A DNA stretch of 63,331 nucleotides from an uncultured Lentisphaeraceae bacterium (GTDB lineage: Bacteria; Verrucomicrobiota; Kiritimatiellia; RFP12; DVOR01). The stretch is taken from positions 1-63,331 of the forward strand of contig CAYZIC010000003.1 of the NCBI GenBank assembly GCA_964478335.1. Direction: 5' to 3'. The notes beneath the pieces were generated by a model. It had not been told where the DNA came from, did not search any database, and saw nothing but the letters and a program-made list of their open reading frames with translations. Position numbers and translations under genes: made by a program. Below, piece by piece: positions 7,357 to 62,967 of the stretch; within the stretch, counting starts at the first letter, position 1; every line of letters begins with the position of its first letter.

Positions 7357-7459
7357 GGCTCTTGTGCGATTTTAGTGGATTGAAATACAAAAGAGGGGAA
7401 ATGACAGCCCCTGTATCCTTCTAATTAATGGAGATGTCGTGTGCGTGAGAGCACCCAGC
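7357..7459 (+). repeat. roughly 100-nt dispersed element, copy 1 (shared with 46281..46378)
   Basis: Near-identical by eye to 46281..46378. It starts with the TIR-like head GGCTCTTGTGCGATTTTAGTGG and contains GCCCCTGTATCCTTCTAATTAATGGAGATG.CGTGTGCGTGAGAG. Confidence 0.75.
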
Positions 7460-7536
7460 CACACTGGCCGAGGCTCGCTCAAGCTCAAATGTCTCACTGT
7501 GCTAAATTTAACATAGTGAGATATTTGAAGATATCT

Positions 7537-7755
7537 GGCTCTTGTTTAATTTTAGTGGGTCGGAAATTAAAAGGTAGGAGCGTAGCGACTGTTCTTGGCG
7601 GCAAAGCCGAGGCACGGCTCCAAGCCGTAATCAGGCATCGCGCAGCGTCCTTTTGCGGCTAAAAATCTGGCAGTCCTACGCGCCCCCCAAAGACTCCGCA
7701 CGACTCGACAAAGCCACAAGCGCCCCGTTTTACCCATTAAAATCGTGCAAGAGCC
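7537..7755. mobile_element. MITE-like element (219 bp) with 23-bp terminal inverted repeats
   Basis: The left end GGCTCTTGTTTAATTTTAGTGGG (7537..7559) pairs with the right end CCCATTAAAATCGTGCAAGAGCC (7733..7755). The interior aligns with 32628..32856 and, inverted, with 18309..18420. No ORF. Confidence 0.7.
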
Positions 7756-7760: not shown

Positions 7761-7783
7761 GGCTTTTGTGCGATTATCGTGAG
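7761..7783 (+). repeat. solo or degenerate copy of the 23-bp TIR
   Basis: GGCTTTTGTGCGATTATCGTGAG lies immediately after the right end of the MITE-like element. Confidence 0.5.
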
Positions 7784-17270: not shown

Positions 17271-18194
17271 CTACGCCTGATGGACAACCAATTGTTGAAA
17301 GGGTATCTCGATCCCTTCGCGCTCCAAGATCTCCATGCCCGCCTTATTCATATCAAAGGTCGCAGTCCAGTAGTCGGCATTGTTTACCCAAAAACGCACA
17401 GTAATGTCGATCGACGACGCACTCAGCGCAACAACCTCTGTTGTAATCTCTTCGCCTTTGAGCACATACTCTTTAGTTGCGACAAGATCACGCAATAACG
17501 CTATGGCCTTGGAGATATCGGTGCCATAGGCTACGTTAAAGACAAAGTCCACTCGACGCGTTGGCAGTGCTGAGTAATTGGTGATCACCGACCCCCAAAC
17601 AGACTTATTGGGCACAATGACGAGCTTATTGTCTGCGGTATTCATCGTCGTGGCCATCATATTGAGCTCGCGAATCTTGCCTGATACGCCACCAATATTC
17701 ACAAAATCACCCACATTAAAGGGCTGATTAATCGCAATCATGAGCCCAGAGGCGATATTACTCAGCGAATCCTGACAAGCAAAACCGACAATAATACCTG
17801 TCACCCCTAAACCTGCAATGAAAGGCGCAATCGAAATCCCAAGCTGCGACAAAACGATGATCCACAACACCCCATACAACAGCTTGCGGCAAGTCGACAA
17901 GATCAACGTCTTGAGCAATGTGTGGATGTACTTCGAATTACTCACCCCCTTATTAACGGCCATCAATGCAAAGAAGATCACAACGCGCCCCATCAGATAA
18001 ATGAGGATGGCCAAAATCACGTGATTGAGGAAATCGACCCCGTGACTATTGATCCACGTATGCACCAAATACATGTGGGGAGAAAAGAACTGCACCAAAA
18101 GCGATCCCAAAGAGGGGGTTGCGGTCGTACAAGCCTGCTCCGCAGCTGGCACTGCGGCAGGAGCTGCGGCAAACAGTATGGTTAATACGCTCAT
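17271..18194 (-). CDS. mechanosensitive ion channel (MscS family)
   Basis: TM helices are followed by the MscS beta-domain ..PFNVGDFVNIGGVSGKIRELNMMATTM....VIVPN. Confidence 0.8.
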   Translation of the reverse strand: MSVLTILFAAAPAAVPAAEQACTTATPSLGSLLVQFFSPHMYLVHTWINSHGVDFLNHVILAILIYLMGRVVIFFALMAVNKGVSNSKYIHTLLKTLILSTCRKLLYGVLWIIVLSQLGISIAPFIAGLGVTGIIVGFACQDSLSNIASGLMIAINQPFNVGDFVNIGGVSGKIRELNMMATTMNTADNKLVIVPNKSVWGSVITNYSALPTRRVDFVFNVAYGTDISKAIALLRDLVATKEYVLKGEEITTEVVALSASSIDITVRFWVNNADYWTATFDMNKAGMEILEREGIEIPFQQLVVHQA

Positions 18195-18532
18195 AACAAT
18201 GGTCCTTTAAAAATAAGATAAAAATGCTTCTAAATCAATATTCTAAATAATAACACAGTCGTGGCTCTCTTGTCAAAAGAAATATGGCTCTTGTGCGATT
18301 TTAATGGGTGAAATGGGGCTCTTGTGGCTTTGTCGAGTCGTGCGGGATCTTTTCTAGGGGTAGCGTAGGTCAGCCAGGGGTAGCGTAGGGGGCGCTTTTT
18401 CTCCCACAAAAGGTTCACAAAGGGGATCGCTTAGATAAAACTCGCAAGCCCATTTTAATCTAAGCGCTCCCTAGTTATCTTTGGGAAATGGATGGGGCTG
18501 CAGTCCCATACCCCACTTGCGGCCTGCGGCGG

Positions 18533-18569
18533 AGCGGCTACGCCGCTGGCATGTAGAATGTAGAATGTA
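18533..18569 (-). repeat. hairpin plus (GAATGTA)n heptamer element, intergenic copy
   Basis: AGCGGC-TAC-GCCGCT hairpin followed by GCATGTA GAATGTA GAATGTA. The same architecture occurs inside gluQ and the S8 protease gene. Confidence 0.8.
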
Positions 18570-18602
18570 CCAGTGTTAGCGACTGGCTCGTTGCAGGGCA
18601 TA

Positions 18603-18795
18603 GCGACTGCGTCGCTAGATTTTGGGAATTGGGATATGGGATTTAGTCTCTGATAGCGGCCTATGGCCTTAGAGCGCTCCCGCGGGTCGCTTGTGGAGAG
18701 TCCCCAACACCTAAACTCTAAACCCTACACTCCCGTAGAGATGACCTTGGTCCTCGCTACGGGAGCCGCGATACTCCTGCCTTTTATCCTTCCGC
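18603..18795 (+). repeat. conserved module B, copy 1 (candidate structured RNA or MITE cargo)
   Basis: Aligns along its length with 33182..33367. It contains GGGATTT-type microrepeats, CGGCC-TAT-GGCC and TCGC...GCGA hairpins, and TCCCGTAGAGATGACCTTGG. Confidence 0.7.
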
Positions 18796-18850
18796 CCCAT
18801 TAAAATCGCACAAGAGCCCTAAAAGTCCGCAGGAGTGCTTCGGGTGAGCG

Positions 18851-19619
18851 TCAGCGAGCTCTGCCTGATGCGTGTTGCGGGCGGGCGTCAGCGAGTCCCT
18901 GCGGGCGACTGATCGTGATGGGGAGGCGTAGATCACAGGTGGTGAGGTGCAAAATGAGGTCTCCAGGGCCGTCAGGGAGCGGGCCGGGGATGGTAAAGAG
19001 GAGATGTCGGGGTGATGGAGATTGAATGGCACTAGCTTGAATGGGGCTACTATCAGCGGGTTCTACGACGACGGCGGTGTCGAGGTACTCTTCAGATAGG
19101 GTGAGGTTGCGGCCTTGCACGAGGATCTCGGCATCGGGCTCGATGGTATTGGGAGCGTCTGCATGGGTAGGGGTAATGCGGGTGACAAGGGGATCTTGGC
19201 GGGCTTCAACTGACATATTGGCATTAGTGATATTATGTGCACTGCCAGTGATTTGTCTATTTTTTGCACGGGTTTGCTGGGCATCGATTACGATGCGGTG
19301 GCGCGTGGGGTCGAATTGGTCTTCGCTATCGATGAAGCGGCCTTTGATGACGGGGTAAAGCTGAATGAGTCCATCGAGATTAATGCGGTAACCTTGGGCG
19401 ATAAGCTTTTGCATGAGGTTGATCAAATCATCGAGCATCATCCGACTAGAGAGAGGCGTTGATGTGGCCCTCGTCGGCGAGACGCTGGGCAAGGGTCTCA
19501 ACATTGTAGGTGGTGCCGGTCTTGACGCTGGCAACATAGGGGGCACTTGTCCCTGCAAGCAACGGGGGCTGGTGTAGGGTAAAAGTCAAGTCTGCTGATG
19601 GGGTTGTTGTTGCGCTCAT
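18851..19619 (-). pseudogene. HU-like DNA-binding domain plus DUF4469-like (Ig-like) protein, split by a frame change
   Basis: A 57-aa ORF (19446..19619, MSATTT..APYVASVKTGTTYNVETLAQRLADEGHINASL*) carries the first half of an HU-like fold. The ORF from the ATG at 19441 (MMLDDLINLMQKLIAQGYRINLDGL..) continues that fold in the +1 frame. An (AG)4/(CT)4 tract lies at the junction. Confidence 0.5.
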
Positions 19620-19690: not shown

Positions 19691-19771
19691 AATAGGTTGC
19701 AATGCGAGTGAAAAATGGGTTGCAACCCAATCTATTTTTGCCTTGCAACCTATTCGTCTTTTGGGTTGCAA
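19691..19771. promoter_or_regulatory. array of four GGTTGCAA / TTGCAACC boxes (candidate operator or iterons)
   Basis: Boxes at 19695..19702, 19717..19728 (the 12-bp palindrome GGGTTGCAACCC), 19743..19750 (inverted) and 19764..19771, spaced about 22-25 bp. They lie 75-150 nt upstream of the HU-like gene. Confidence 0.45.
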
Positions 19772-20054
19772 GGCAAATGCGCAATGGGTTCTAATCTAAT
19801 TACTCAATCGGTTGAAATGGATTATTCAATTGCATTGTAATGTGTCATGGGACGCCTTGCTGAGGTCTCTATCCAAGAGAGCGCAGCGACCGTTCTAAGA
19901 GGACGTAGGCCGTTCTAAAAGGGAGCGCAGCGACCTTTTAGGGTACTTTTGTATGCAGATGTTGCTCATTTGGCCAATTTACGGCTTGCTTTATTAAGAA
20001 GAATCTGCTAGATTAAGGACGTTGATTTATTAGTAAAGAAAGGTTCATTGACAG

Positions 20055-21956
20055 ATGAAAACAAAACTTCTCCTTTTGACGGTTCTAGCCGTCGCTCTCA
20101 CAACAGGCTTTGCAGCCGACCATTTTGACAAAAGCTACCTCTTGCCCAATGACCTAGCGCTTGCACCGAGCCAAGACCAATTGGCCATCTCCCTCTTTAA
20201 CGCCAAGCAAATCCGCGTAACGACCTTACAAGGTCAAGCGATCAAAAAGATTAACTTGGAGCGCACAACAGGCGGCTTTCTTGGCTTGGGCGGGCACACT
20301 GTAAGCTATCCAGCCCTAAGCGTAGCCTATTCTCGTGACGGTAAGAGCCTCTATGCTACTGCGGAGAATGGTAATGAGGGACTCCTCTTTAAGATTAATT
20401 GCGAGTCTGGTCGGATCGTTAAGAGCACGGTCGCAGGCAATCACCCGATGGGGGTCATTGTTTCGGCAGATGGCCAATCGGTCTATGTCTGTAATCGCTT
20501 TGACAGCTCGGTGCAACGCTTTGATGCCGACACGCTCGATAGCCAAGCGACTGGCAAAGTCACCCGCGAAGCCCACGCCTGCGCTTTAGGCCAAGACGAC
20601 AAGCTCCTATTTGTCGCCAACCATCTACCGCTGATTGCCACAGAGCCCATGGGCGCTGTTTCTGCAGTAGTCTCAGTGCTTGATGCCAAGACCCTCCGCA
20701 AGAAGTATGACATTCCCTTAGCCAATGGCGCAACTGGTGTGCGCGATGCGGTGGCCTCGCCTGACGGCCGCTATATCTATGTCTCTCACACGCTTGCGCG
20801 ATTCCAATTGCCCACGACTCAGCTCGAACGCGGCTGGATGAATACTGCAGCGCTCTCAGTTATTGATGGGCAAGCTGGCGTTTTGATCAACACAGTCCTC
20901 TTGGATGATGTAGACTTAGGCGCAGCCAATCCTTGGGCAATCACGGTCACCCCAGATGGCAAATCATTGGTCATCACTCATGCTGGCACCCGCGAGGTCA
21001 GCGTCATTGACCGTGTCAAGTTGCACAAGCAGCTCGATATGGCTCGCCTCAATCAAAAGGTCACCTCTGTCACCAGCTCGGCAGCTGATGTCTCTTACGA
21101 TTTGTCATTCCTCTCGGGAATTCGCCGTCGCATCACCTTTACTGCTGATGGACCTCGCAGTGCTGTGGCGACCAATGATCGTATCTACACAGCAGCATAT
21201 TTTGCTGACGGACTCGTAGAAATTCCCTTTAAAGATCGCGTCGTGCGTCCTCGCATCTACCCCTTGCAAAATGGTAAGCTTATCGACCTCTCTAAGGATC
21301 GTGTGCTACGCGGTGAAATGCTTTTTAATGATGCGTCCATGTGCTTCCAACAATGGCAATCCTGTGCGACATGTCACCCTGACGGCCGTGTCGACGGGCT
21401 CAACTGGGATCTTCTCAATGACGGCATTGGTAACCCCAAGCAAACCAAGAGCCTATACCTCTCTGGTTTCACCCCCCCCACAATGATCACAGGGATTCGT
21501 GCAGACATGGGGCACTGTAATCGCGCAGGCATTCGCCATATTCAATTCTGCACACGCCCTGAAGAAGACCCCATCTGCCTTGACGAATATGTCATGGCGA
21601 TGCGCGCTCACCCATCGCCTTATACTCGCGACAGTGCTGCAATTGCCCGTGGCCGCAAAGTATTTGATCTTGCAGGATGTGCAGTCTGCCATCCCCATCC
21701 TGCTGATGGCGAGGACTATTACACTGACCTCAAGCAGTATGACATGGGCTTAGGCATTCGCAACGAAGTCGGCCGCAAGTTTGACACCCCCACCCTACGT
21801 GAAGTCTGGCGTACAGCTCCCTACCTCTACGATGGTCGAGCGGTCACAATGATGGATGTCCTCACGACATGCAATCCCAAAGACACCCATGGCAAGACGA
21901 GCACCCTGACACCACAGCAGCTCAAAGATCTCGAAATCTTTGTTCTTTCGCTCTAA
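20055..21956 (+). CDS. secreted beta-propeller (YVTN/YncE-like) fused to a di-haem cytochrome c peroxidase-like domain
   Basis: A signal peptide is followed by repeated ..DGKSLYAT.., ..DGQSVYVCN.., ..DGRYIYVSH.., ..DGKSLVITH.. blades. The C-terminal half has two CxxCH haem sites (CATCH, CAVCH). Confidence 0.75.
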   Translation: MKTKLLLLTVLAVALTTGFAADHFDKSYLLPNDLALAPSQDQLAISLFNAKQIRVTTLQGQAIKKINLERTTGGFLGLGGHTVSYPALSVAYSRDGKSLYATAENGNEGLLFKINCESGRIVKSTVAGNHPMGVIVSADGQSVYVCNRFDSSVQRFDADTLDSQATGKVTREAHACALGQDDKLLFVANHLPLIATEPMGAVSAVVSVLDAKTLRKKYDIPLANGATGVRDAVASPDGRYIYVSHTLARFQLPTTQLERGWMNTAALSVIDGQAGVLINTVLLDDVDLGAANPWAITVTPDGKSLVITHAGTREVSVIDRVKLHKQLDMARLNQKVTSVTSSAADVSYDLSFLSGIRRRITFTADGPRSAVATNDRIYTAAYFADGLVEIPFKDRVVRPRIYPLQNGKLIDLSKDRVLRGEMLFNDASMCFQQWQSCATCHPDGRVDGLNWDLLNDGIGNPKQTKSLYLSGFTPPTMITGIRADMGHCNRAGIRHIQFCTRPEEDPICLDEYVMAMRAHPSPYTRDSAAIARGRKVFDLAGCAVCHPHPADGEDYYTDLKQYDMGLGIRNEVGRKFDTPTLREVWRTAPYLYDGRAVTMMDVLTTCNPKDTHGKTSTLTPQQLKDLEIFVLSL

Positions 21957-21986
21957 TCCTTTCACGCTTATCCTTAAGGTCTCACC

Positions 21987-22982
21987 ATGTTAATCCACCA
22001 AAATAGCCTTGCATCCGCCCCACTACTCTATGCCACACTGACGCAAATCTCGACTGCGGGGTGGTCTGCAGCGGCACAAGCCCCGCGATTCAACCTTCTC
22101 GATGCCACCCCGACCCTCTGGCTCACCCACCCAACGGAGACGACCTACCCCGCCGTCTCACAACGCACATTCCTACCAGATGGGCAAGCAGGCATCCCCA
22201 TCGTGCTCAATGGCCGAACCGTTGGCTACACCTATGAAGATGACTTTGCCACCTACGCCCTCTTGACAGGCGTCCTGCCACAAGATCTCAAGGCAAGCCG
22301 GTTTGACCAAACGACCTCCGCCTTTGAATCCATCGAAGCGGCCCTATTTCAAGTAGGCATGACCTTTAAGCACGTCGTGCGCACCTGGCTCTATATGGAT
22401 GATGTCCTCAGTTGGTATGACCAGCTCAACCAAGCTCGCGATGCATTCTTTGAGAGCCGCCAAATCTTTGGCGGATTCATCCCAGCAAGTACAGGCATTG
22501 GCACTGCGAACTGGTCCGGGTCAGCGATTGCGACCTGCGCCATTGCGATGAAACCTAAGAGCGACGCGGCCTCGGCCTACATGGTTGATTCGCCCCTGCA
22601 ATGCTCGGCACTCAATTATCGTAGCACCTTTAGCCGTGCAGCGGAGATCAAAACCCCCACTCAGCGTACGCTTTTCATTTCTGGTACAGCGAGCATCAAG
22701 CCCGCCAGCCACGACGTGGCCTACATTGGCGACATTGTCAAGCAGATTGACTGCACGATGAATGCCGTGGAGGCGATCCTCACCTCGCGCAAAATGACCT
22801 TCGCAGATGTCTCGCGCGCTGTCGTCTACCTCAAGGATCCAGCATTCTTAGAGCCTTGGCGCAACTGGCTCGCCCAAAAGGGCTTGCCGGCCTTTGCCCA
22901 AGAGATTGTCGCCGACGTTTGTCGAGACGAATGGCTCTTTGAGATCGAGCTTGATGCCATCACCACCCAACAGATTGACTGA
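21987..22982 (+). CDS. chorismatase-like protein (FkbO/Hyg5/XanB2 family, RidA-type fold)
   Basis: ..RTWLYMDDVLSWYDQLNQARDAFF.., ..ASTGIG.., ..LNYRSTFSRAAEI.. and ..LFISGTASI.. followed by ..IGDIVKQIDCTMNAVEAIL match my recollection of FkbO-type chorismatases. Not verified by search. Confidence 0.5.
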   Translation: MLIHQNSLASAPLLYATLTQISTAGWSAAAQAPRFNLLDATPTLWLTHPTETTYPAVSQRTFLPDGQAGIPIVLNGRTVGYTYEDDFATYALLTGVLPQDLKASRFDQTTSAFESIEAALFQVGMTFKHVVRTWLYMDDVLSWYDQLNQARDAFFESRQIFGGFIPASTGIGTANWSGSAIATCAIAMKPKSDAASAYMVDSPLQCSALNYRSTFSRAAEIKTPTQRTLFISGTASIKPASHDVAYIGDIVKQIDCTMNAVEAILTSRKMTFADVSRAVVYLKDPAFLEPWRNWLAQKGLPAFAQEIVADVCRDEWLFEIELDAITTQQID

Positions 22983-22988
22983 TACCCT

Positions 22989-23696
22989 ATGCCCTATTTC
23001 GTTAATATGATTCTCTACGTTCTTGTAGCAGCATCCATCTATTTGGCCTTTCCACAACCGCACAGCTGGCTTACCAGCAATGCGGTTTATGCAGTCTTAT
23101 GGGGACTGCTTCTCATCAATGGATTGGTTGCGCTGCGTGCGCTATGCAGATGGATCAAGCACCCAAGCGGTTTTGCCATTGCATCGCTGGGATTTCACCT
23201 CGGCTTTCTCCTGCTGATTGTCGCAGGTGGACTCTCAAGAAATAGCACCTCTGGCTACGTACCGTTGGCCGCAGGCGACCGCGAACGCCGCCTCTTTGAC
23301 AAAGCCATTCGTACGCCCTTGTCGACGCTCCCCTTTTATATTCATCTAGATAATTTCACGATTGACACCTATCCCTCTGGAATGCACCGTCAGTACTATT
23401 CACAGCTACGACTCATCGACACCGCCACAGGCGAGCAGTACCAAGGCACCGCCTCGGTGAATCATCCCGTGCGTCATGCTGGTTGGACCATCTATCAAAT
23501 GAGCTACCAGCACTTTACCGATCCCCAAACAGGCGCACCGCTGTGGGTCACCATCTTGCAAGTCAAGCACGACCCTGGCTTGCCTTACCTCTTTACGGCC
23601 TATGGGCTGATCGTTTTTGCTGCGCTTGCCTTTGCCATTGCCATCTTACGTCGCAAACGTCCCACCAAGCACCAGGAGGCTCACGATGGACATTAA
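22989..23696 (+). CDS. short ResB/Ccs1-like cytochrome c biogenesis protein
   Basis: Four TM segments, and a C-terminal ResB-type block ..FYIHLDNFTIDTYPSG..YYSQLRLID...SVNHPVRHAGWTIYQMSY. At 235 aa it is much shorter than the usual ResB of over 400 aa. Confidence 0.6.
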   Translation: MPYFVNMILYVLVAASIYLAFPQPHSWLTSNAVYAVLWGLLLINGLVALRALCRWIKHPSGFAIASLGFHLGFLLLIVAGGLSRNSTSGYVPLAAGDRERRLFDKAIRTPLSTLPFYIHLDNFTIDTYPSGMHRQYYSQLRLIDTATGEQYQGTASVNHPVRHAGWTIYQMSYQHFTDPQTGAPLWVTILQVKHDPGLPYLFTAYGLIVFAALAFAIAILRRKRPTKHQEAHDGH

Positions 23697-24408
23697 ACTA
23701 TCCCTACTCGGCTGGCTGCTCAATATCACCTTTATTCTCATTGGTGCGACCGCCATCACGCGTAAACGCCTCCTCTGGGCTGCTGTTTTTTGTTGTGGTA
23801 TAGCGATCCTTGCAGTGCGTGGTTGGAGCGCAGGTCATATGCCCATGCGCAACCTCTTTGAGTCGTTCTTATGGTTTGCCATGCTCTTTCCCCTCTGCAC
23901 GGCACTAGAATGGCACTTCACGCGCGTCGATACGCTTCGTCTCGATGCTGCGCTTGCTCTGGTATTTTTCTTTCCCGTCGTCTTTGTCTTTAAAGAGACC
24001 CTCTCACCGCTGCCGCCAGCCCTGCAGAGTCCATTCTTTGTGCCCCACGTCTTTGCTTACATGGCTGGCTACGCCCTCATGGCCAGAGCGGCCTTTTTGA
24101 GCTGGCGTAGCGACCTCCACCTCGCAGACCGCTCGGCGGTGATAGGATTCTTTTGCATCACAGTAGGCCTAGCACTAGGCTCGTGGTGGGGCAACGAGGC
24201 TTGGGGCGGCTATTGGCAATGGGACCCCAAAGAGATGTGGTCCTTAGCCACGTGGCTCATCTACGTCGGATACTTTCATATTCGCCTTAAACCACGCGCC
24301 ACGATTTGGGCTAGGGTCCTCTTGTGGCTCGGTCTGCTATTCATTATCCTGACAGTCACGTGGATTAACCTCTCAAAGCTTTTTCCAGGAATGCACAACT
24401 ATGCCTAA
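23686..24408 (+). CDS. ccsA: cytochrome c biogenesis protein CcsA/ResC
   Basis: ORF 23617..24408 trimmed to the ATG at 23686 (MDIKLSLLGWLL..). It has the Trp-rich WWD motif WGGYWQWDPKE and flanking conserved His residues. Confidence 0.85.
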   Translation: MDIKLSLLGWLLNITFILIGATAITRKRLLWAAVFCCGIAILAVRGWSAGHMPMRNLFESFLWFAMLFPLCTALEWHFTRVDTLRLDAALALVFFFPVVFVFKETLSPLPPALQSPFFVPHVFAYMAGYALMARAAFLSWRSDLHLADRSAVIGFFCITVGLALGSWWGNEAWGGYWQWDPKEMWSLATWLIYVGYFHIRLKPRATIWARVLLWLGLLFIILTVTWINLSKLFPGMHNYA

Positions 24409-25213
24409 CCCCCCCCCAGATCCCAGCGAAGAAGCCGCTGCACATCCTGCTATTTGCGTCATCGATGAATTGATTGATGCGCTTGAATTCGCCCGAGAAT
24501 CGGGCGTAAAGCGCATCCCCGTCGACCCTGTAGTCTGGCGTGAATTTGTGAGTCCGCGCAAGCAGGCTCAAGTCCAGCAAGCCACCGCACAAGTGGTGGC
24601 AGCGAGTCAATCTACCGATTCCAATATCCCCAGCCATGATGCTGCAGCATTGTCCACGCTCAATAGCGCCATTGAATCCTGCGAAAAGTGCCCCCTACAC
24701 AAGACCTGCACCAAGCGTCTTGTCGGCCAAGGCAATAGCCAATCGCCAGACATCATGTTGATCAATGGCATGACCTCGCATGCAGACATTCTCGCAGGCC
24801 AAATCATCTCAGGAGCTGCGGGGCAACTCCTAGACAAAATGCTTGCCGCAATCGGTCAAAGCCGCCAATCGGTCTACCTGACCAGTGCCTGCAAATGCGC
24901 CACACAAACCGGTAGACAAGACCCCGTTGCCCAAGAAACCTGCGCAGCGCTCCTCCAACGCGAAATCGCCGCCGTCAACCCCAAGATCATCATCATGCTT
25001 GGCCCTGTCGCCGTCAAGGGCACATTTGCCAATTCATCAGCTGGGCTCTGCGACACCATTGGCAACTGGCATCACTGGCAAAATAAAATTCTTGCTGTAG
25101 CCATCCATCATCCCATGCGCATGCAAATCCTCCCAGAGGCTACCGCACACCCCCTCAAAGCAGACACCTGGCAAACACTCCTTGCAGTAAAAAGAAAGCT
25201 AACCAATGGCTAA
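24401..25213 (+). CDS. uracil-DNA glycosylase, family 4, with an N-terminal extension
   Basis: ..CEKCPLHKTC.. Fe-S Cys pattern, ..GQGNSQSPDIMLING.., ..GAAGQLLDKML.., ..IHHPMRM. Confidence 0.75.
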   Translation: MPNPPPDPSEEAAAHPAICVIDELIDALEFARESGVKRIPVDPVVWREFVSPRKQAQVQQATAQVVAASQSTDSNIPSHDAAALSTLNSAIESCEKCPLHKTCTKRLVGQGNSQSPDIMLINGMTSHADILAGQIISGAAGQLLDKMLAAIGQSRQSVYLTSACKCATQTGRQDPVAQETCAALLQREIAAVNPKIIIMLGPVAVKGTFANSSAGLCDTIGNWHHWQNKILAVAIHHPMRMQILPEATAHPLKADTWQTLLAVKRKLTNG

Positions 25214-26483
25214 GTTTATCATCAAAGGCGGCAAGACAATCTCAGGCACGCATCGCGTTTCGGGCAATAAGAATGCAGCCCTCCCCATGCTTGCGGCTGC
25301 ACTGCTAACCCAAGATCCCGTCACGCTAACAAACCTCCCCAACATTCTCGATGTCCAAGTCATGCTCCAAGGCATCCAAAAGCTCGGCGCTCGAGTCGAT
25401 TATCGACCAGAGGTCAACCAAGTCACCATCCGAGCTAAAAAGATCAGCGACACCGTTTCAAAAGAAATCTGCGACAAAGTCCGCACCTCAATTCTCTTTG
25501 CAGCCCCCCTACTCGCCCGCACAGGCAAAGCCAAACTCTACCCACCTGGTGGCGATGTCATTGGCAAGCGTCGGCTCGACACCCATATCAATGGCTTTAA
25601 AGCTCTCGGTGCATCCGTCTCTAAGGCCCTTCTTTTCAAAGCGCCCACCCGCCTAACAGGCACCTACTTTCTCCTCGATGAAGCCAGCGTCACCGCCACA
25701 GAAAACCTCATCATGGCAGCAGTCTGCGCCCAAGGTCAAACCACCTTTTACAATACCGCATGTGAGCCCCACATCTGCGACCTCTGTAAGATGCTCAATA
25801 CCATGGGGGCTAAAATTACAGGCTACGGCACTAACCGCCTAATCATTGACGGCGTAGATAAGCTCCATGGCACGACAGTCTCCGTTGGGCCAGACTTTAT
25901 TGAAGCTGCCTCCTATCTGGTGGCAGCGCTAGTCACAGACGGATCGATGACCCTGACCCACATTCGCAAAGATGAGTTTGACATTATGCAAGGCGCCTTT
26001 GCCAAATTTGGCGTCAAGTGGACGATTCATGACGACACGCTCATACTACCTAAGCAAAAGCTCAAAACCACCTATGATTTTGGGCAAGCGATTCCCAAGA
26101 TTGATGATGGGCCATGGCCAATGTTACCCTCTGATCTTATTAGCATTTTGATTGTATTAGCGACCCAAACGCGCGGCACCATGCTGTTTTTTGAGAAAAT
26201 GTACGAGAGCCGCCTCTACTTCGTTGACAGGCTGATCGATATGGGGGCTAGGATCGTGCAATGTGATCCCCATCGTGTGGTCGTGACTGGTGTCAGCAAC
26301 CTCCATGGAGAGATTGTCGCCAGCCCAGACATACGCGCAGGCATTGCACTCGTCATAGCAGCACTCTGCACCAAAAAGGGACAAACCACCGAGATCGGCA
26401 TGGCCGAACGCATCGACCGAGGCTACGAAAAACTCCACATTCGCCTCCAAGAGCTCGGTGCCGACATCATCAGAGAGGACTAA
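25206..26483 (+). CDS. murA: UDP-N-acetylglucosamine 1-carboxyvinyltransferase (Asp at the Cys115-equivalent position)
   Basis: 425 aa with ..SGNKNAALP.. near the N-terminus. The active-site loop reads PPGGDVIGKRRLDTH, against LPGGCxIGARPVDLH in E. coli. Confidence 0.93.
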   Translation: MAKFIIKGGKTISGTHRVSGNKNAALPMLAAALLTQDPVTLTNLPNILDVQVMLQGIQKLGARVDYRPEVNQVTIRAKKISDTVSKEICDKVRTSILFAAPLLARTGKAKLYPPGGDVIGKRRLDTHINGFKALGASVSKALLFKAPTRLTGTYFLLDEASVTATENLIMAAVCAQGQTTFYNTACEPHICDLCKMLNTMGAKITGYGTNRLIIDGVDKLHGTTVSVGPDFIEAASYLVAALVTDGSMTLTHIRKDEFDIMQGAFAKFGVKWTIHDDTLILPKQKLKTTYDFGQAIPKIDDGPWPMLPSDLISILIVLATQTRGTMLFFEKMYESRLYFVDRLIDMGARIVQCDPHRVVVTGVSNLHGEIVASPDIRAGIALVIAALCTKKGQTTEIGMAERIDRGYEKLHIRLQELGADIIRED

Positions 26484-26486
26484 TTT

Positions 26487-27623
26487 ATGAAGATCTTGTG
26501 CGACATCAACCTCCCCCTAGCTGAATCCCTCTTTAGCCGTCTTGGAGACGTGCAGATGATAGAGGGTCGCAGCCTCACCCCCGAAATGGTCCACGATGCC
26601 GACCTCCTCATGATTCGTAGCACAGCCAAGATGAATGAATCCCTCTTGGCAGGCTCATCTGTCAAGATGATTGGCTCTGGCGTCATTGGCACCGACCACC
26701 TCGACCAAGCCTACTTAGCGCAAGCCGGGATCCCGTGGGTCAATGCTCCTGGGTGCAATGCCCAGAGCGTCGCCGACTACTGGACGACCGCCATTTTGCA
26801 GCTAGGACAAGTCAGAGGGATCACTTGGGCTGGCAAAACCGTTGGCATCATTGGTATGGGCAATGTCGGCCAAGCCGTCAATTGTCGCGCACAAGCCCTC
26901 GGCATGACCGTGATTGGTTGTGACCCCTTTATCCCCGGGCAAGGCTACGTCGACATCGATACCCTCCTGCCCCAGTGCGACATCATCACCCTCCACACCC
27001 CCCTCACCCACGACGGCCCCCACCCCACCTACCACCTCTTTGCTGGACCACGCGTCCGCAAAGTCAAGCCCGGCGCCGTCCTCGTCAATATGGCCAGAGG
27101 CCCCATTCTCGAATCTGAGATCGTCTGTGCAGCCATTGACCACGGATTCCTATCCGATGCCATTATCGACTGCTGGGAGGGCGAGCCAGACTGGTCTGCC
27201 AACCTCGCAAGCCACGCCTTTAGGACAACCCCCCACGTCGCCGGCCACGCTTACGAAGGTCGCATCAATGGCACCATCGCCATCTACCGCGCAGCCTGTG
27301 AATTTGTGGGCGTGCCCACAGGCGAAATCCCCCCCTTGCCAGCTGCGCCATGCGCAGAAATCACTTGCGATGCAGCCAATTACCCTACCGACCAAGCCCT
27401 CCTTTGCGACATCACCAGTCAAGTCTGTGACATTGCTGGAGACGACAGGCGATTTCGTGCGGCCTATACAGACGACCCAGCAAGCCGCCGCAAAAACTTC
27501 GACACCCTACGCAAGACCTACCCCCTACGTCGACTCTTTGCCGCATCGACAATCCTCCTCAAAAATGCGACACCCACACTCATCAAAACAATCAACGCCC
27601 TTGGATTTAACTGCATCGCGTAA
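26487..27623 (+). CDS. pdxB: 4-phosphoerythronate dehydrogenase
   Basis: N-terminus MKILCD.N.P typical of PdxB, NAD-binding motif GIIGMGNVG, and the extra C-terminal dimerisation domain (378 aa). Confidence 0.85.
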   Translation: MKILCDINLPLAESLFSRLGDVQMIEGRSLTPEMVHDADLLMIRSTAKMNESLLAGSSVKMIGSGVIGTDHLDQAYLAQAGIPWVNAPGCNAQSVADYWTTAILQLGQVRGITWAGKTVGIIGMGNVGQAVNCRAQALGMTVIGCDPFIPGQGYVDIDTLLPQCDIITLHTPLTHDGPHPTYHLFAGPRVRKVKPGAVLVNMARGPILESEIVCAAIDHGFLSDAIIDCWEGEPDWSANLASHAFRTTPHVAGHAYEGRINGTIAIYRAACEFVGVPTGEIPPLPAAPCAEITCDAANYPTDQALLCDITSQVCDIAGDDRRFRAAYTDDPASRRKNFDTLRKTYPLRRLFAASTILLKNATPTLIKTINALGFNCIA

Positions 27624-27637
27624 AAAGGTCCTCAACC

Positions 27638-29050
27638 ATGTCCGCATCCTCCGCATCAAGCAATAAGCCTCAAGCAAACGATGCTCTCGCGCCAAAAACT
27701 AAAGGCCGTAGACCAAAGGCAATAGGTGGTAAAGCCACCCATGAATTCACCCCCACTAATGCCACGAAGTTTTTTGTACCCTTGGTGATCCAAACGGCCT
27801 CCCAATGCCTCACCTATCCCCTCGTAGGAGCGATTGTTGCCCACGGCATCCATGGCAAGCTCGAATTTGGAGCATTCTCCCAAGGCCTCATGGTGATGTT
27901 TTTGTTTGGATGCTTAGGTTATGGGCTAATCACCACAGGCATGGTATTTGCAAAGGACAAAGTCAGCTACGCACGATTTATTCGCGTCAACCATATTGTG
28001 ATGGGCTGTACAATCGCTCTGCAATGTATCTGCATGCTCCCACCGATATCAAATGTCCTCTTTAAGACGCTACTTGGATTATCGGGCTTTCAATTTGACA
28101 TTGCGCGCTACTCAATGTTCTCTGCGATTATTGCACAGATCGGATTTTTCATTCGTAATATTCCACAAGTCATTCTTTATAATGCCCACCAGACCTCTCG
28201 CGCAAACTTTGCGACGATTTTACGCATCATCATCACCGCACTCCTCTCGCCACTTTTTCTCACCCTTGGGCTATTTGGATGGCTCTGGGGCATCATCGCA
28301 CTGACGCTCCCTATCTTTCTTGAAATAGGGCTCATGTTTATCTTTGCCTGGCCCCATATCAAATCCCTCCCCACCTACACCTCAGAGACAAGAGAAGCCA
28401 GAATCTTGCGTCAATTTCTCTTTAACATCCCCCTCTCACTGGGAGGGCTACTCCTGGCAGCATCCAGTATCGTACTCAATGCCGTGATCAATCGCACCCC
28501 AGATGGTGCCAATATGCAAACGATTCACGTCATTGCCATGGGCATCATCAACCCGATCTCGCTTGGTGCACTGCGCACCCAAGCCGTCGCGATTGGCTTT
28601 CCACAATGCGGCAAACACGATCATCGTACCTTTTACTTTTCGCTCTATGCGGGGATCGTTCTTTGCGGAGTCATACTCCTGCTACAGCTCCCTCTCTTTA
28701 GCAACTGGTACTTCATTGATCTACAAAACTTGCTACCCAAAGACCTCCCCCTCGCCAAAGAGTCCCTACTGCTTGCAGCCATCATTCCCCTTTTGCAAAC
28801 CATACGCGGTCACGCAGAAGGTCTCGCCTCCTACCGTAAACGCCCCAACGCCGTGCTTGCAGGACAAGCAGCCTTTCTCTCGACCCTCGTTATTAGCCTG
28901 CTCATCTGCTTCGAGCTCAATGTACCAGGCTACAAAATGGGCGTTATATCACTCGCCATCTCCATGCTTGCAACGGGATTAACCGTTCGCCTCGGCCTTC
29001 TCCTTGCCCAATTTGAGCCACCATCCACACCTAACGGGATCCACCAATGA
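27638..29050 (+). CDS. polytopic membrane protein (possible MATE/MOP-superfamily transporter)
   Basis: 470 aa with about 12 hydrophobic segments after a basic N-terminal tail. No diagnostic motif was recognised. Confidence 0.4.
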   Translation: MSASSASSNKPQANDALAPKTKGRRPKAIGGKATHEFTPTNATKFFVPLVIQTASQCLTYPLVGAIVAHGIHGKLEFGAFSQGLMVMFLFGCLGYGLITTGMVFAKDKVSYARFIRVNHIVMGCTIALQCICMLPPISNVLFKTLLGLSGFQFDIARYSMFSAIIAQIGFFIRNIPQVILYNAHQTSRANFATILRIIITALLSPLFLTLGLFGWLWGIIALTLPIFLEIGLMFIFAWPHIKSLPTYTSETREARILRQFLFNIPLSLGGLLLAASSIVLNAVINRTPDGANMQTIHVIAMGIINPISLGALRTQAVAIGFPQCGKHDHRTFYFSLYAGIVLCGVILLLQLPLFSNWYFIDLQNLLPKDLPLAKESLLLAAIIPLLQTIRGHAEGLASYRKRPNAVLAGQAAFLSTLVISLLICFELNVPGYKMGVISLAISMLATGLTVRLGLLLAQFEPPSTPNGIHQ

Positions 29051-30204
29051 GCACCCGCATCGGCAGACTAGCCCCCAGCCCAACAGGCGCCCTACACCTA
29101 GGCAACATCCGCACCTTTATGATTGCCTGGCTACAAATGCGCGCCTGCGGCGGCCAAATCCGTATGCGCATCGAGGACCTCGACCACCCCAAACACAAAC
29201 CCGGAGCCACCGCAGCCCTGCTTGACGACCTCCAGTGGTTAGGCTTTGATTGGGATGGCCCCATTGTCACCCAGAGCCATCGCCACCCCCTCTATCAAAC
29301 CGCCCTCGAGCAGCTCATTCGTAATGAGCAGGTCTACCCTTGCATTTGTAGTCGTCGCGACATCCAACAAGCCGCCTCCGCCCCCCACGCAGGTGAAATC
29401 CTCCATTACCCAGGCACATGCCGCGGCCGCTTCACCAGCGGCGCAGCCGCCCTCAAGGCTATATCTGGCGGCGCAGCCGCCCCACATTCTACATTCGACA
29501 TTCCACATGCTAGCGGCTCCGCCGCTGTCGCGTGGCGATTCAAGATTCCCACCGGCAGCATCGCCAGCCTCATCGACCGCTTTGCAGGCCCCTATACAGA
29601 GGAGCCATCCACCAGCAGCGGCGACTTCGTCGTTGCCCGTGGCTACGCCCCACTAGAACAAGAGGCAAGCTACGCTTGCGCAACAAGCAAAGCAAGCGCA
29701 GCTTGCACGCAGTCAATGCCTGATGCTAGAGGCGGGGCACCTGCCTCTTATTGCGCAATGCCTGTTGCAGGCGGCTCTGCCGCTCCACATTCCACATTCC
29801 ACATTCCACATTCTAGTGGCTCCGCCGCTATCGCCTACACCCTCGCCGTAGTTCTAGACGATGCAGAGATGGGAGTCACCGATGTCGTACGAGGAGACGA
29901 TCTACTCGCAGCCACGCCCTCACAACTACACCTCTACCAAGCCTTTGGCAAGACACCCCCGACCTTTTGCCACGTGCCCCTCGTCATCGGTACCGACGGA
30001 CGCCGCCTTGCCAAACGCCACGGCGACACCCGCATCAGCACCTATCGCGCAGCCGGCATCACCCCAGAGCAAATCATTGGCACCCTCGCCCGCAGTTGCC
30101 GCTGGACAAACAGCCCCACCATGACACTCGGACAACTCATTCCCCACTTTGATTTAGCCACGATTCCCCATTCACCCCTCATTTGGCAGGAGACCCTCTT
30201 ATGA
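29047..30204 (+). CDS. gluQ: tRNA glutamyl-Q(34) synthetase (GluQRS) carrying repeat-derived in-frame insertions
   Basis: Class-I signature RLAPSPTGALHLGN, then ..AYTLAVVLDD.., ..VVRGDDLL.., ..RRLAKRHGD. It is 385 aa, against about 300 aa for the family. Confidence 0.8.
   Translation: MSTRIGRLAPSPTGALHLGNIRTFMIAWLQMRACGGQIRMRIEDLDHPKHKPGATAALLDDLQWLGFDWDGPIVTQSHRHPLYQTALEQLIRNEQVYPCICSRRDIQQAASAPHAGEILHYPGTCRGRFTSGAAALKAISGGAAAPHSTFDIPHASGSAAVAWRFKIPTGSIASLIDRFAGPYTEEPSTSSGDFVVARGYAPLEQEASYACATSKASAACTQSMPDARGGAPASYCAMPVAGGSAAPHSTFHIPHSSGSAAIAYTLAVVLDDAEMGVTDVVRGDDLLAATPSQLHLYQAFGKTPPTFCHVPLVIGTDGRRLAKRHGDTRISTYRAAGITPEQIIGTLARSCRWTNSPTMTLGQLIPHFDLATIPHSPLIWQETLL
29467..29526 (+). repeat. 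hairpin plus heptamer element, in-frame copy 1 in gluQ (60 nt)
   Basis: GGCGGCGCAGCCGCC, CACATTC TACATTC GACATTC CACAT, then the AGCGGC-TCC-GCCGCT hairpin. Translated as GGAAAPHSTFDIPHASGSAA. Confidence 0.8.
29770..29829 (+). repeat. hairpin plus heptamer element, in-frame copy 2 in gluQ (60 nt)
   Basis: GGCGGCTCTGCCGCT, four copies of CACATTC, then TAGTGGCTCCGCCGCT. Translated as GGSAAPHSTFHIPHSSGSAA. Confidence 0.8.
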
Positions 30205-32479: not shown

Positions 32480-32509
32480 TCTGAGCGCTAATCGGCCCAA
32501 TAACGAAAC

Positions 32510-32566
32510 CTACGCCATACACACATGACCGCTCGTACAACGAGCGATCATGTGTGTATGGCGTAG
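32510..32566. repeat. 57-nt perfect palindrome (19-bp arms plus an inner 5-bp hairpin)
   Basis: CTACGCCATACACACATGA (32510..32528) pairs with TCATGTGTGTATGGCGTAG (32548..32566). The centre is GCTCG-TACAA-CGAGC. It lies 31 nt after the stop at 32479 and has no U-tract. Confidence 0.8.
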
Positions 32567-32627
32567 ATTGTGGATGTTGGAGTTGAGAGGTTGCTGGGGC
32601 AAGAATTGCCAATAAGCGACAAAAAAA

Positions 32628-32856
32628 GGCTCTTGTTTGATTTTAGTGAGTCGAAAGTATAAAAGGTAGGAGTTCCAAGAGGCGGAGTCTCCTCACGGCT
32701 CCCAGCCGTAATCAGGCATAGCGCAGCGTCCCTTTGTGACATCTTTGTGAACCTTTTGTGGGAGAAAAAGCACCTCCATATGTAGCTTCCCAAAAAGATC
32801 CCGTATGACTCGACAAAGCCACAACAGCATTTGACCCATTAAATAGAAGAAGAGCC
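32628..32856. mobile_element. MITE-like element (229 bp), homologous to 7537..7755
   Basis: The left end GGCTCTTGTTTGATTTTAGTGAG pairs with the right end CCCATTAAATAGAAGAAGAGCC. The interior shares ..AAAAGGTAGGAG.., ..CGGCTCC.AGCCGTAATCAGGCAT.GCGCAGCGTCC.., ..GACTCGACAAAGCCACAA.. with the 7537 copy. Confidence 0.7.
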
Positions 32857-33181
32857 CAAAGAGGTGAAAATGAAACAGCAGAAATGTACCTAAAATGCTC
32901 AGAGAAAGCAAGCACTAACTTTAGAAGCTAGACTTAAACTTTCAGGACTTGTCTTAGAGTTCCTAAGAGGGAAGCCTAAGAAAGAGAAGAATGGTCATAG
33001 TCCATCTGTGGGAAGGTGTAATTCCTGGCCTAAGGACTCCTGCTTCCCTCACAGGGGGGATCTCTTATACAAAGAGGGCTATTTTATTATACAATAGCCT
33101 TTACGAAAGGCCCTAGAATGGAGATTGGGGAAGGAGCGGAGCCTCCTAGCTCGAGTCTAGAGTGCGAGTGCTAATGGTGGG

Positions 33182-33389
33182 GCGGCTGCGTCGCTGGATT
33201 TTGGGATTTGGGATTTACTCTCTGATAGCGGCCTGTGGCCTTTGAGGGCTCTCGCTGGTCGCTTGTGGTGGGACCCCCAACTCCTAACAGCTAAACCCTA
33301 ACTCCCGTAGAGATGACCTTGGCCCTCGCTACGACAGCTGCGATACTCCTGCTTCTTATCCTTTAGCCCCGCTAAAATCGCACAAGAGC
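33182..33389 (+). repeat. module B copy 2, ending in a TIR copy
   Basis: Aligns with 18603..18818 and ends CCCGCTAAAATCGCACAAGAGC (33368..33389). With the left TIR at 32628 this could be a 762-bp composite element. Confidence 0.7.
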
Positions 33390-33567
33390 GGCTCTTATCT
33401 CAAGCATCTCTCATACGGGTCTATTGTTGCCTCCTCTACCTAGGATCGGTCTAGATATGTTGCAATGGGCTTTTGGGCGACTTGTGGCGCTTTGGCTTGC
33501 GACTTGCGCCGTGGGGGGGCGTTTTTTTGGGGGAAGTGTCGACAACTGGTCTAATCTGGGTAGCTCT

Positions 33568-38700: not shown

Positions 38701-38731
38701 GGGTGTCCTCCTAAAACGGCCTGGGACTGAT

Positions 38732-38760
38732 TGGCTACGCCGCTAGAATGTGGGATGTGG
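38732..38760 (-). repeat. hairpin plus heptamer element, intergenic copy between sdaA and the protease gene
   Basis: TGGC-TAC-GCCGCT followed by AGAATGT GGGATGT GG, 32-60 nt upstream of the protease start codon. Confidence 0.65.
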
Positions 38761-46182: not shown

Positions 46183-46280
46183 TAAATGAATCAATAAATC
46201 AAGTCTAAAAAGGCACCTGAGCGCAAGAATGTAGAGAGTGTGCGCCACTAGGACAGCAGCGCAGTGACCATTTCCGACGT

Positions 46281-46378
46281 GTGTGCGATTTTAGTGGATG
46301 GAAAGACAAAAGAGTGCCAATGACTGCCCCTGTATCCTTCTAATTAATGGAAATGCCGTGTGCGTGAGAGTATCCAGC
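46281..46378 (+). repeat. roughly 100-nt dispersed element, copy 2 (shared with 7357..7459)
   Basis: GTGTGCGATTTTAGTGGATGGAAAGACAAAAGAG...GCCCCTGTATCCTTCTAATTAATGGAAATGCCGTGTGCGTGAGAG is nearly identical to copy 1 by eye. Confidence 0.75.
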
Positions 46379-46570
46379 TCATTCTGGCAGCTTCTTTCCC
46401 AACAGTCATCCCTGCTCCTCTTTTATCACCAGCACCCAAAACCTGTCTAATTTTGGTCGGGTATTATACGCTTTGCCAACTTTTTCAAGTGCGACATCTA
46501 TTATTGTAGGTTTCAAGACACTGTCGTCCTAAAAAGTTGGCGTTTTAGGCTATTTTGTACTTGCATTTCG

Positions 46571-61798: not shown

Positions 61799-62036
61799 CG
61801 GCCTACGGATTACACGGCTTCTGCGATGCAGAAACGGCCTGCGGCCGTGTGAGCTAGCGATCAACTAGAAGCGGAGTAAGCTCTACCAGAGAGATGCCTG
61901 TCAATCTCTTGGAGCGGGGATGACACTGGTGTGGATGCAAGCACGCTCGTCGCCCAAGAGGCTGAAGGCCGTTTTAAGAGCGAGCTCTATGACATTACTG
62001 CGGCACGTTAATGTTATTTTTTTGGTCAATTGACAG

Positions 62037-62795: not shown

Positions 62796-62967
62796 TTTTC
62801 AATTAACGAAAAGTCATTTTTTTACCTGCATTAGCCATTTTACGCTTTACATTCTGTTTAAAATCAGTTACCCTATACATGTCAAATAAGTCTTCGTGCC
62901 TTGTTTTGATAGATACAATTGTGTGTTAACTAACTGAGTCTAATTGACTCTTAAAAGGAATACCGCT

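Follow-up and report, generated by a model that had tools for sequence, protein, structure and literature searches.

Gene content of the contig and location of E2

The window examined here is an entire contig of 63,331 bp, of which 89 % is coding and 6,949 nt (11 %) is intergenic. Pfam annotation of essentially every ORF returned housekeeping genes only, including those for T2SS pseudopilins, asd, ClpXP, trigger factor, mscS, aroA, thiC, thiD and recD2, and no transposase, integrase or Y1/RAYT gene was detected. The proteins of the contig cluster as singletons, and the named relatives of its Asd (71-77 % identity) and GluQRS proteins are from Kiritimatiellae/Kiritimatiellia MAGs.

The element under study, here called E2, is a non-coding segment of 533 bp (18286-18818) situated between the stop codon of an ORF of 235 aa (18851-19558, minus strand), which has a weak match to an HU-like domain that is below the Pfam cut-off, and the mscS gene (17271-18194, minus strand). 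A good candidate for the mscS promoter is found 10 bp beyond the left end of E2, and its -35 box falls within a degenerate remnant, GGCTCTCTTGTCAA, that resembles the terminal inverted repeat (TIR) of the element. An outward-facing sigma-70 promoter in the TIR itself (TAAAAT) was considered and rejected, as no acceptable -35 box was seen on inspection and the scans gave no consistent sites. Scans of the equivalent internal positions of the other family loci described below found no consistent promoter or terminator signal, and no regulatory role is therefore assigned to the family. The features of E2 and its immediate surroundings are as follows.

18247..18276, minus strand: sigma-70-like promoter of mscS, TTGACA-18-TATTAT with TG, 11/12 matches; context, outside the element
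18286..18308, plus strand: R-type TIR of E2 (GGCTCTTGTGCGATTTTAATGGG), exact reverse complement of 18796-18818 and identical to the family consensus
18309..18422, minus strand: R-end subterminal region, inverted homologue of 7667-7755 and 32743-32856
18317-18327: second GGCTCTTGTGG in the R-end, 31 nt inward of the terminus
18322-18339, minus strand: 18-mer GACTCGACAAAGCCACAA, invariant in 3/3 R-ends
18357-18369 and 18377-18389: two direct 13-mers, GGGGTAGCGTAGG, in the R-end
18423..18519, no strand: interior segment with a hairpin of 8-bp stem (18429-18436 / 18458-18465), weakly alignable to 33053-33165
18520..18575, minus strand: hairpin-heptamer micro-repeat, absent from the otherwise homologous 33053-33390
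18533-18547: hairpin AGCGGC-TAC-GCCGCT (AGCGGCTACGCCGCT)
18551-18569: ATGTAGA x2.7 (ACATTCT on the minus strand), after the AGCGGCTACGCCGCT hairpin
18602..18645, no strand: second micro-repeat, an AGCGAC-TGC-GTCGCT hairpin with TTTGGGA-type heptamers, also present at 33180-33216
18603..18817, minus strand: module B, 84 % identical over 216 nt to 33182-33389
18711-18732: CTAAACY heptamers in module B, detected by TRF
18731-18738 / 18757-18764: TCCCGTAG/CTACGGGA hairpin in module B
18774..18795, minus strand: L-end subterminal region (GCGGAAGGATAAAAGGCAGGAG), common to all L-type ends
18796..18818, minus strand: L-type TIR of E2, top nhmmer match to the L-end profile (E = 6e-12)

The TIRs and interior of E2

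The perfect 23-bp TIR reported in an initial annotation of this DNA is real, as 18286-18308 and 18796-18818 are exact reverse complements and none would be expected by chance. The 23-mer GGCTCTTGTGCGATTTTAATGGG has five sites in the window at up to three mismatches, against 0.00 expected from 100 shuffles. However, the perfect match is less telling than it appears, because the E2 23-mer is also the consensus of the family, from which the remaining termini differ by only 2-6 nt (17-21/23 matching). A perfect TIR demands no more than that both ends are at consensus, and in C1, one of the partial copies listed below, the L-type TIR already matches at 21/23.

That E2 includes no credible ORF also held up. 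The longest ORFs overlapping it are 62 aa or less and none has a Pfam match. A small ORF that seemed to be conserved across the R-end was discarded, as a TGA breaks the frame in E3, a shorter relative. When folded as single-stranded DNA, E2 gives -109.9 kcal/mol compared to -80.5 +/- 4.6 for shuffled sequences (z = -6.3), and this strong folding is due to the TIR stem together with several internal hairpins. An identity as a structured RNA was rejected. Rfam 15 gave zero matches in E2 at E <= 1 and nothing at the gathering level across the window, where the only matches at E <= 0.1 were spurious miRNA matches to a hairpin at 32507-32569, and RNAalifold applied to the short relatives E1 and E3 was uninformative.

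Related elements in the contig

Further members of the family were identified with nhmmer profiles of the two ends and by self-BLAST. Apart from E2, they are:

7357..7468, plus strand: C1, an L-end with about 85 nt of a third type of interior and without R-end; 88 % identical over 107 nt to 46282-46388
7537..7755, plus strand: E1, complete short member, 219 bp, imperfect TIRs (18/23)
7761..7783, plus strand: solo degenerate TIR-like 23-mer, back-to-back with the right end of E1; nhmmer E = 0.036, 18/23 to the consensus
32628..32856, plus strand: E3, complete short member, 229 bp, degenerate right TIR
33053..33390, minus strand: B3, an L-end and module B without R-end; either an E2-like copy that has been truncated or a unit with a single end
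46276..46388, plus strand: C2, second copy of the C unit, with the first 7 nt of the TIR replaced; 28 nt upstream of a glycosyltransferase start codon
49821..49888, minus strand: solo degenerate L-end fragment; nhmmer E = 0.012

In the nhmmer profile search of the window, six solid L-type termini (7357+, 7537+, 18818-, 32628+, 33390- and 46276+), three R-type termini (7755-, 18286+ and 32856-) and two weak termini (49888- and 7761+) were found. L-type ends thus number six, or eight with the two weak ones, against three R-type ends. The 11 termini (9 solid and 2 weak) are at five loci, in both orientations and all intergenic, and the earlier count of at least 10 related TIR copies, in both orientations and only between genes, was about right. 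These termini make up three complete and five partial copies at five loci in 63 kb and, from the sum of the element lengths, the family accounts for approximately a quarter of the intergenic DNA of the contig. E2 is the longest and best-preserved copy, with TIRs that pair at 23/23 positions compared to 18/23 for E1 and about 16/23 for E3. Conservation across the family is higher at the ends than in the interiors. Pairwise identities are 64-89 % for L-ends, 73-84 % for R-ends and 84 % for module B. The 18-mer GACTCGACAAAGCCACAA is present in three exact copies against 0.05 expected, though the R-ends that include it are overall just 73-84 % identical. Better-conserved ends and an invariant 18-mer would fit ends that are bound by a protein.

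Relationship of E2 to E1, E3 and B3

Module homologies were taken from self-BLAST and the ends of E1, E2 and E3 were aligned using MAFFT. The segment 18286-18422 corresponds to the inverted R-end of 7537-7755 (84 % over 92 nt) and of 32628-32856 (74 % over 137 nt), and 18773-18818 corresponds to the inverted L-end of the same two elements (83 % over 46 nt). Hence, read on the minus strand, E2 opens with the L-end of E1 and E3, about 45 nt that comprise the TIR and GCGGAAGGATAAAAGGCAGGAG, and the R-end is common to E2 and E1 over about 90 nt and to E2 and E3 over about 135 nt. The L- and R-ends diverge from each other beyond about 25 nt, and the interior of E2, of about 350 nt, is different from the interior of about 80 nt found in E1 and E3. 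The initial annotation described E2 as holding an inverted copy of the module found at 7537 and 32628. The homology is genuine, but E2 is not a container for that module. As the asymmetric L-end and R-end are both common to these elements, the whole of E2 is a longer, inverted member of the E1/E3 family.

The homology of module B to 33182-33389 was borne out, and a weaker homology between E2 and B3 probably reaches out to about 18420 / 33053. The ATGTAGA micro-repeat of E2 is missing from B3, which suggests either insertion in E2 or loss from B3. L-end-only units recur with equal structure at different loci (C1 and C2, and B3 when compared to E2), and this recurrence is not predicted by a simple two-ended model. 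Both this and the excess of L-type over R-type ends count against the MITE-like reading preferred below.

These relationships also allow E2 to be read as a tail-to-tail juxtaposition or recombinant, in which an E3-like R-end fragment (18286-18422) abuts a B-type L-end unit (18420-18818) and the perfect TIR would only reflect two ends that are near consensus. The homology to E3 stops at 18422 and that to B3 starts at about 18420 with nothing between them, a B unit without R-end is present at 33053-33390, and the L-end-only C1 and C2 recur. That the E2 23-mer equals the consensus and that the TIR of C1 is already close to it are also consistent with this reading, which would, in addition, explain why no duplication surrounds the 533-bp unit (see below). 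Against this, the two ends are correctly inverted and 23/23 identical, and the L-type TIR of E2 has an A at position 19 where 5/6 other L-type ends have a G, its partner being the better match. E1 and E3 show L and R ends joined as single units, and juxtaposition is not needed to account for the missing duplication, as the short complete E1 and E3 also lack one. We consider a juxtaposition unlikely, though worth bearing in mind, and it is partly compatible with the reading that we prefer, namely that E2 is a TIR-bounded repeat resembling a miniature element (MITE).

Target site duplications and age

No target site duplication of 2-12 bp was found at E1, E2 or E3 when offsets of up to 4 nt were allowed, and the best scores (3-5) were typical of those from 2,000 random position pairs. 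The same search (2-12 bp, offsets up to 4 nt) of conceivable composite elements also found none. The 8-mers flanking E2 (AGAAATAT/CTAAAAGT), E1 (AGATATCT/TTTGCGGC) and E3 (CAAAAAAA/CAAAGAGG) do not represent 8-bp duplications. A TA duplication, as made by IS630-like elements, was hinted at by an extended pairing of 26 nt in E2 and was rejected, as E1 and E3 are not flanked by TA. A consistent duplication is missing from all three complete copies, an outcome that the initial annotation had itself listed as counting against its reading.

Copies in the family are 64-90 % identical and no two exceed 90 % identity over 100 nt, hence the family is old and recent activity is unsupported. With neither duplications nor an autonomous element found, the earlier suggestion of an active or recently active MITE family was not upheld. 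The combination of a perfect TIR in E2 with no duplication is also awkward for a recent cut-and-paste insertion. The family does have TIRs, its complete members are small (219-533 bp) with no transposase ORF, and its copies are multiple and dispersed, all of which are properties of MITEs. However, formal membership fails on the duplication, which was not found.

An alternative is that the enzyme moving the family leaves no duplication, candidates being an HUH/Y1 enzyme acting on single-stranded hairpins, as RAYTs do on REPINs, or a site-specific recombinase. The substrate would then be the folded element, and E2 would have retained its perfect stem for this reason. REPINs, of about 100 nt, and REP units, which are short and imperfectly palindromic, are mobilized by RAYT (Y1) transposases. 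The missing duplications at every complete copy, the restriction to intergenic DNA, the presence of doublets (E1, E2 and E3) beside many singlet ends, the low folding energy of E2 and the abundance of small hairpins, GC-rich and with 3-nt loops, within and near the elements all point in this direction. But a reading of the 23-mer found no internal dyad and, unlike REP units, it is non-palindromic. The TIR mismatches in E1 (18/23) and E3 (about 16/23) are uncompensated, which argues against selection for the hairpin. In addition, elements of 219-533 bp with two different conserved ends are far above the typical size of REPINs, and the contig has no Y1 or RAYT gene. We regard mobilization of this kind as distinctly improbable, and continue to favour a TIR-bounded, MITE-like repeat.

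Hairpin-heptamer micro-repeats

Most of the interior of E2 is made up of small hairpins, GC-rich and with loops of 3 nt, and a few heptamers in tandem follow each of them. The hairpin/heptamer element noted earlier is one of these, the AGCGGCTACGCCGCT hairpin at 18533-18547 followed by ATGTAGA x2.7. The general form of this micro-repeat is (ACATTCY)3-4 followed by AGCGGC-NNN-GCCGCT, and it is often preceded by GGCGGC-NNN-GCCGCC. Matches to the pattern ACATTCNACATTC number 15, where 0.26 would be expected. Five further copies of the (ACATTCY)n micro-repeat were located in the window:

29467-29531: in frame inside a gene
29770-29834: in frame inside a gene
34854-34890: in frame inside a gene
36937-36963: in frame inside a gene
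38717-38758: intergenic

The GluQRS-like ORF at 29047-30204 includes two in-frame micro-repeats that add the peptides GGAAAPHSTFDIPHASGSAA and AGGSAAPHSTFHIPHSSGSAA, and an ORF for a subtilase of 1,710 aa also includes two (peptides HSTFNILHS and PHSTFDIPA). The GluQRS inserts are missing in all of the aligned homologues, including that of the syntenic closest relative described below (310 aa, against 385 aa here). In the AlphaFold model pLDDT is below 50 at residues 142-159 and 201-260 and the remaining fold is confident, so that the inserts are predicted to be disordered in an otherwise confident fold. The insert in the GluQRS homologue P0270 was examined as a possible related micro-repeat and rejected as unrelated. 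The heptamers had first suggested a cyanobacterial origin (HIP1, STRR), and this was also rejected, as HIP1 (GCGATCGC) is absent from the window and the named protein matches are to Kiritimatiellae.

Searches beyond the contig and the closest relative

A degenerate 22-mer version of the TIR had no matches in 185,579 species genomes or in the JGI metagenomes. A relaxed TIR pattern had 13 single matches in metagenomes, which were attributed to chance because none had extended similarity or a second, inverted copy. The viral collection yielded no matches to either the TIR or the R-end pattern, blastn of E2 against plasmids found nothing, and a literature search for the exact TIR found nothing relevant. 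Thus, the further copies or autonomous partner elsewhere that had been anticipated were not seen in the genome and viral scans, and the metagenomes gave chance-level matches only. The related statement that the family is non-autonomous, TIR-bounded and intergenic, with its partner absent from the window, is supported by the 23-mer counts, the alignments of the ends and the profile search, and by the Pfam annotation of the whole contig.

A protein scan of genome contigs with the neighbouring MscS found no relative above 50 % identity, and MscS therefore gave no usable orthologous locus. Searches with Asd and GluQRS led to the closest relative, represented by two Logan contigs (34 kb in total) from sample ERR6050773, with an Asd that is 87 % identical and a gene order that matches 20055-31043 of the window. 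No copies of the family were found in these 34 kb. One of the two contigs, L095, stops short of the E2 site, with its end 562 nt upstream of the gene orthologous to that at 20055. The family loci in the window fall at the edges of the blocks that are syntenic with this relative and, based on 34 kb without a copy, the family appears to be lineage-specific.

A further reading is that the repeats are not mobile at all. They would then be host cis-elements, such as sites bound by a nucleoid protein or a regulator, or RNA hairpins with a terminator or stabiliser role, that were multiplied by recombination and kept by selection. The TIR and the 18-mer of the R-end are more conserved than the remainder, several copies are just upstream of the starts of asd, of two GT4 glycosyltransferase genes and of mscS, the -35 box of mscS lies in a TIR-like remnant, and duplications are absent, all of which speak for this reading. 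However, convergent 3' ends are equally occupied (e.g. by the R-end of E1, the L-end of E3 and B3), equivalent internal positions show no consistent promoter or terminator signals, and the elements are long, mosaic and variable, unlike operators. No Rfam match was found, nor any covariation in E1/E3, where two sequences provide almost no power, and the family is absent from the syntenic block of the closest relative. A non-mobile origin is, in our judgement, very unlikely.

Origin of the E2 family

The reading that we favour, and consider somewhat probable, is that E2 is an old, lineage-specific, non-autonomous, TIR-bounded intergenic repeat, a type II MITE in kind, whose interior is a mosaic. 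A type II MITE, in published terms, is one in which only the ends are common with any parent element. We infer mobilization in trans, whereby a transposase encoded elsewhere in the genome would have recognised the 23-bp termini together with subterminal sites, and would have moved the elements into A/T-rich intergenic DNA. Candidates for these subterminal sites are, in the R-end, the invariant 18-mer and the second GGCTCTTGTGG and, in the L-end, the conserved stretch of about 22 nt. The GGCTCTT terminus points, as a best guess, to a DDE enzyme similar to those of ISL3. The interior would serve no function itself, being passenger DNA, and that of E2 may have been enlarged by accretion or by nested insertion of hairpin-plus-heptamer micro-repeats. 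By now, decay would have reduced most of the family to imperfect or truncated copies and solo ends.

The E2 family is new, though of a well-known sort, and its phylum is an unstudied one. Should it prove to be a true MITE family, none would have been described earlier in the Kiritimatiellota, as far as the literature search shows, and if the absence of duplications holds genome-wide, it would point to an unusual mobilization mechanism. Its loci coincide with breaks in synteny to the closest relative, and only 10 bp separate E2 from the mscS promoter. Together with its share of the intergenic DNA, this gives the family a bearing on gene regulation, genome plasticity and assembly breaks in an uncultivated lineage. 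Its most noteworthy aspect is the hairpin-heptamer inserts found in frame. Through the micro-repeat, a conserved enzyme of tRNA modification (the GluQRS-like protein) gains in-frame loops that are predicted to be disordered, and these inserts would provide a second, independent system, besides the Rickettsia palindromic elements (RPEs), for the study of how proteins tolerate repeat insertion.

Comparison with known systems

TIRs of the ISL3 type measure 15-39 bp. ISL3 elements and an ISL3-derived MITE, the latter carried by Microcystis aeruginosa PCC 7806 (PMC11448079), have ends of about 24 bp that start with GGCTCTTCG, with direct repeats of 8 bp on either side (PMC11448079, PMC6305408). The E2 family resembles these elements and MITEs in the GGCTCTT start, in a TIR of about 23-24 bp and in being small, non-coding and dispersed between genes (PMC11448079, PMC6305408). 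It differs in lacking the 8-bp direct repeats, and the TIR sequence departs past base 7 (GTGCGATTTTAATGGG vs CGCGGTTGGTGGTGAAT). In our own pairwise comparison with the end of ISArsp7 (GGCTCTTCGCGGTTGGTGGTGAAT; PMC6305408), the E2 terminus matched at 13/24 positions, made up of the 7 terminal bases and 6 scattered ones. No ISL3 transposase is encoded on the contig.

Type II MITEs, namely Chunjie of Geobacter, QMITE1/2 of Coxiella and the Correia elements of Neisseria, are like the E2 family in their conserved TIRs and variable interior and length, and also in their truncated one-ended copies, intergenic sites and lack of homology to transposase genes (PMC10969869). Size ranges have been described for the QMITE families, and truncated copies and solo ends for Chunjie (PMC10969869); by analogy, the truncated and solo ends seen here would be decay products. 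Intact copies of Chunjie, QMITE and Correia elements have direct repeats, and most have a candidate parent IS (PMC10969869). The E2 family has neither, and its complete copies number three.

REP units and REPINs are alike in having no duplications, in being strictly extragenic, in occurring as inverted doublets and decaying singlets, and in their strong hairpin potential. The E2 family differs in its non-palindromic 23-mer, its length of 219-533 bp, its two distinct ends and the lack of a RAYT gene on the contig. The pneumococcal BOX element is modular (boxA-boxB(n)-boxC), with modules that are defined blocks, and is similar in its mosaic build, with conserved end modules around variable internal modules, and in having no ORF. 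However, BOX elements have no sequence relationship to the E2 family, are found in a host of a different phylum and do not include hairpin-heptamer micro-repeats.

For the micro-repeat, the nearest parallels are the small dispersed repeats of Nostoc, reportedly described by Elhai et al. in 2008 as embedded in tandem heptamers, and the RPEs. All are tiny hairpin-forming repeats that occur in intergenic DNA as well as within unrelated housekeeping genes, to which they add a peptide while the reading frame stays intact, and they share tandem heptamers and nesting in MITE-like elements. RPEs are about 150 nt long (PMC10969869), whereas the micro-repeat is about 45-65 nt, is distinct in sequence, with AGCGGC-NNN-GCCGCT flanking (ACATTCY)n, and is from a Kiritimatiellia-like host; its mobility is putative. 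A bolder proposal, which we hold to be speculative and rather unlikely, is that the E2 family and the nested hairpin-(ACATTCY)n micro-repeats together form an undescribed mobile-repeat system of Kiritimatiellia, moved without duplication by a non-DDE (e.g. HUH) enzyme. Essential genes (GluQRS, subtilase) would receive in-frame insertions of its smallest units, and the interiors of the larger elements would be built from these units too. The system would then be the counterpart, in a PVC phylum and with a mechanism of its own, of the Rickettsia RPEs and the small dispersed repeats of Nostoc.

Genes and intergenic DNA adjoining the repeats

The MscS gene (17271-18194) adjoins E2, the 533 bp element with perfect 23 bp terminal inverted repeats, and lies in DNA of lower local GC content (0.46). 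No homologues sharing >50 % identity with the MscS gene were found among 5.8 billion proteins, whereas Asd, encoded on the same contig, has a relative at 87 %. The MscS gene may have been horizontally acquired.

Motifs of the form GGTTGCAA/TTGCAACC occur at eight sites in the window (2.75 expected), and five of the eight are clustered in a nested inverted-repeat arrangement at 19691-19801, upstream of the gene at 20055 for a 633 aa lactonase/cytochrome-c-peroxidase-like protein. This cluster looks like a putative regulator binding array. Direct repeats containing AGCGCAGCGACC (GAGCGCAGCGACCGTTCTAAGAGG ... GGAGCGCAGCGACCTTTTAGGG) are present at 19840-19950, and their similarity to the GCGCAGCGTCC motif within E1 and E3, the short complete members of the E2 family, suggests that there are further small GC-rich repeat families in the intergenic DNA.

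The pyridine-nucleotide disulfide oxidoreductase gene (31107-32479) is split: its two ORFs (31107-32345 and 31877-32479) overlap, are read in different frames and match different portions of the Pyr_redox_2/Pyr_redox_dim architecture. The split is a frameshift, reflecting either pseudogenization or misassembly. We note that this gene is located directly upstream of the repeat cluster formed by E3 and B3, a family left end with module B. A hairpin at 32507-32569 (30 bp arms, 93 % complementary, 3 nt loop) lies 28 nt past the oxidoreductase stop codon and 59 nt ahead of E3. In Rfam this hairpin has only spurious miRNA matches, and it may be a terminator or a further palindromic element.

Composition and the low-GC contig end

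Across the whole window, composition is strongly strand-specific, with C-rich coding strands; GC skew is -0.15 to -0.43 over blocks of + strand genes and +0.15 to +0.33 over - strand blocks. A non-coding stretch of about 1.1 kb (61900-62968) has a GC content of 0.37, and GTAAGTTAGAC occurs in it four times, with both orientations represented (0.22 expected). The stretch is directly followed by a gene starting at 62969 that is truncated by the contig end and, judged on its N-terminus alone, presumably encodes a hybrid-cluster-protein-like product.

The micro-repeat within and between genes

The unit hairpin-(ACATTCY)3-4-hairpin found in E2 (18520-18575) recurs in frame within two unrelated genes, and there is also an intergenic copy.

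Locations of the micro-repeat outside E2
29437-29531 and 29640-29834, in the GluQRS-like ORF (29047-30204)
34854-34890 and 36937-36963, in the subtilase ORF (33568-38700, - strand)
38717-38758, intergenic

In the closest relative, the intergenic contig end upstream of the ortholog of gene 20055 (L095, 1-562) has its own 50 nt direct repeat (124-173 and 361-410, 84 % identical). Within this repeat, TTAGGGATTAGGTGTTG shows a weak, non-significant similarity (E=2.5-7) to the CTAAACY heptamer tract of E2 and B3, and the repeat may be distantly related to the micro-repeats.

All four coding copies run the same way round within their genes. The inserts in the GluQRS-like ORF, one of about 20-30 aa and the other of about 60 aa, have no counterpart in any aligned homologue, including that of the syntenic closest relative, and are predicted to be disordered loops in the structure model. 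The pattern of in-frame micro-repeats in the GluQRS-like and subtilase genes is similar to that of the Rickettsia palindromic elements.
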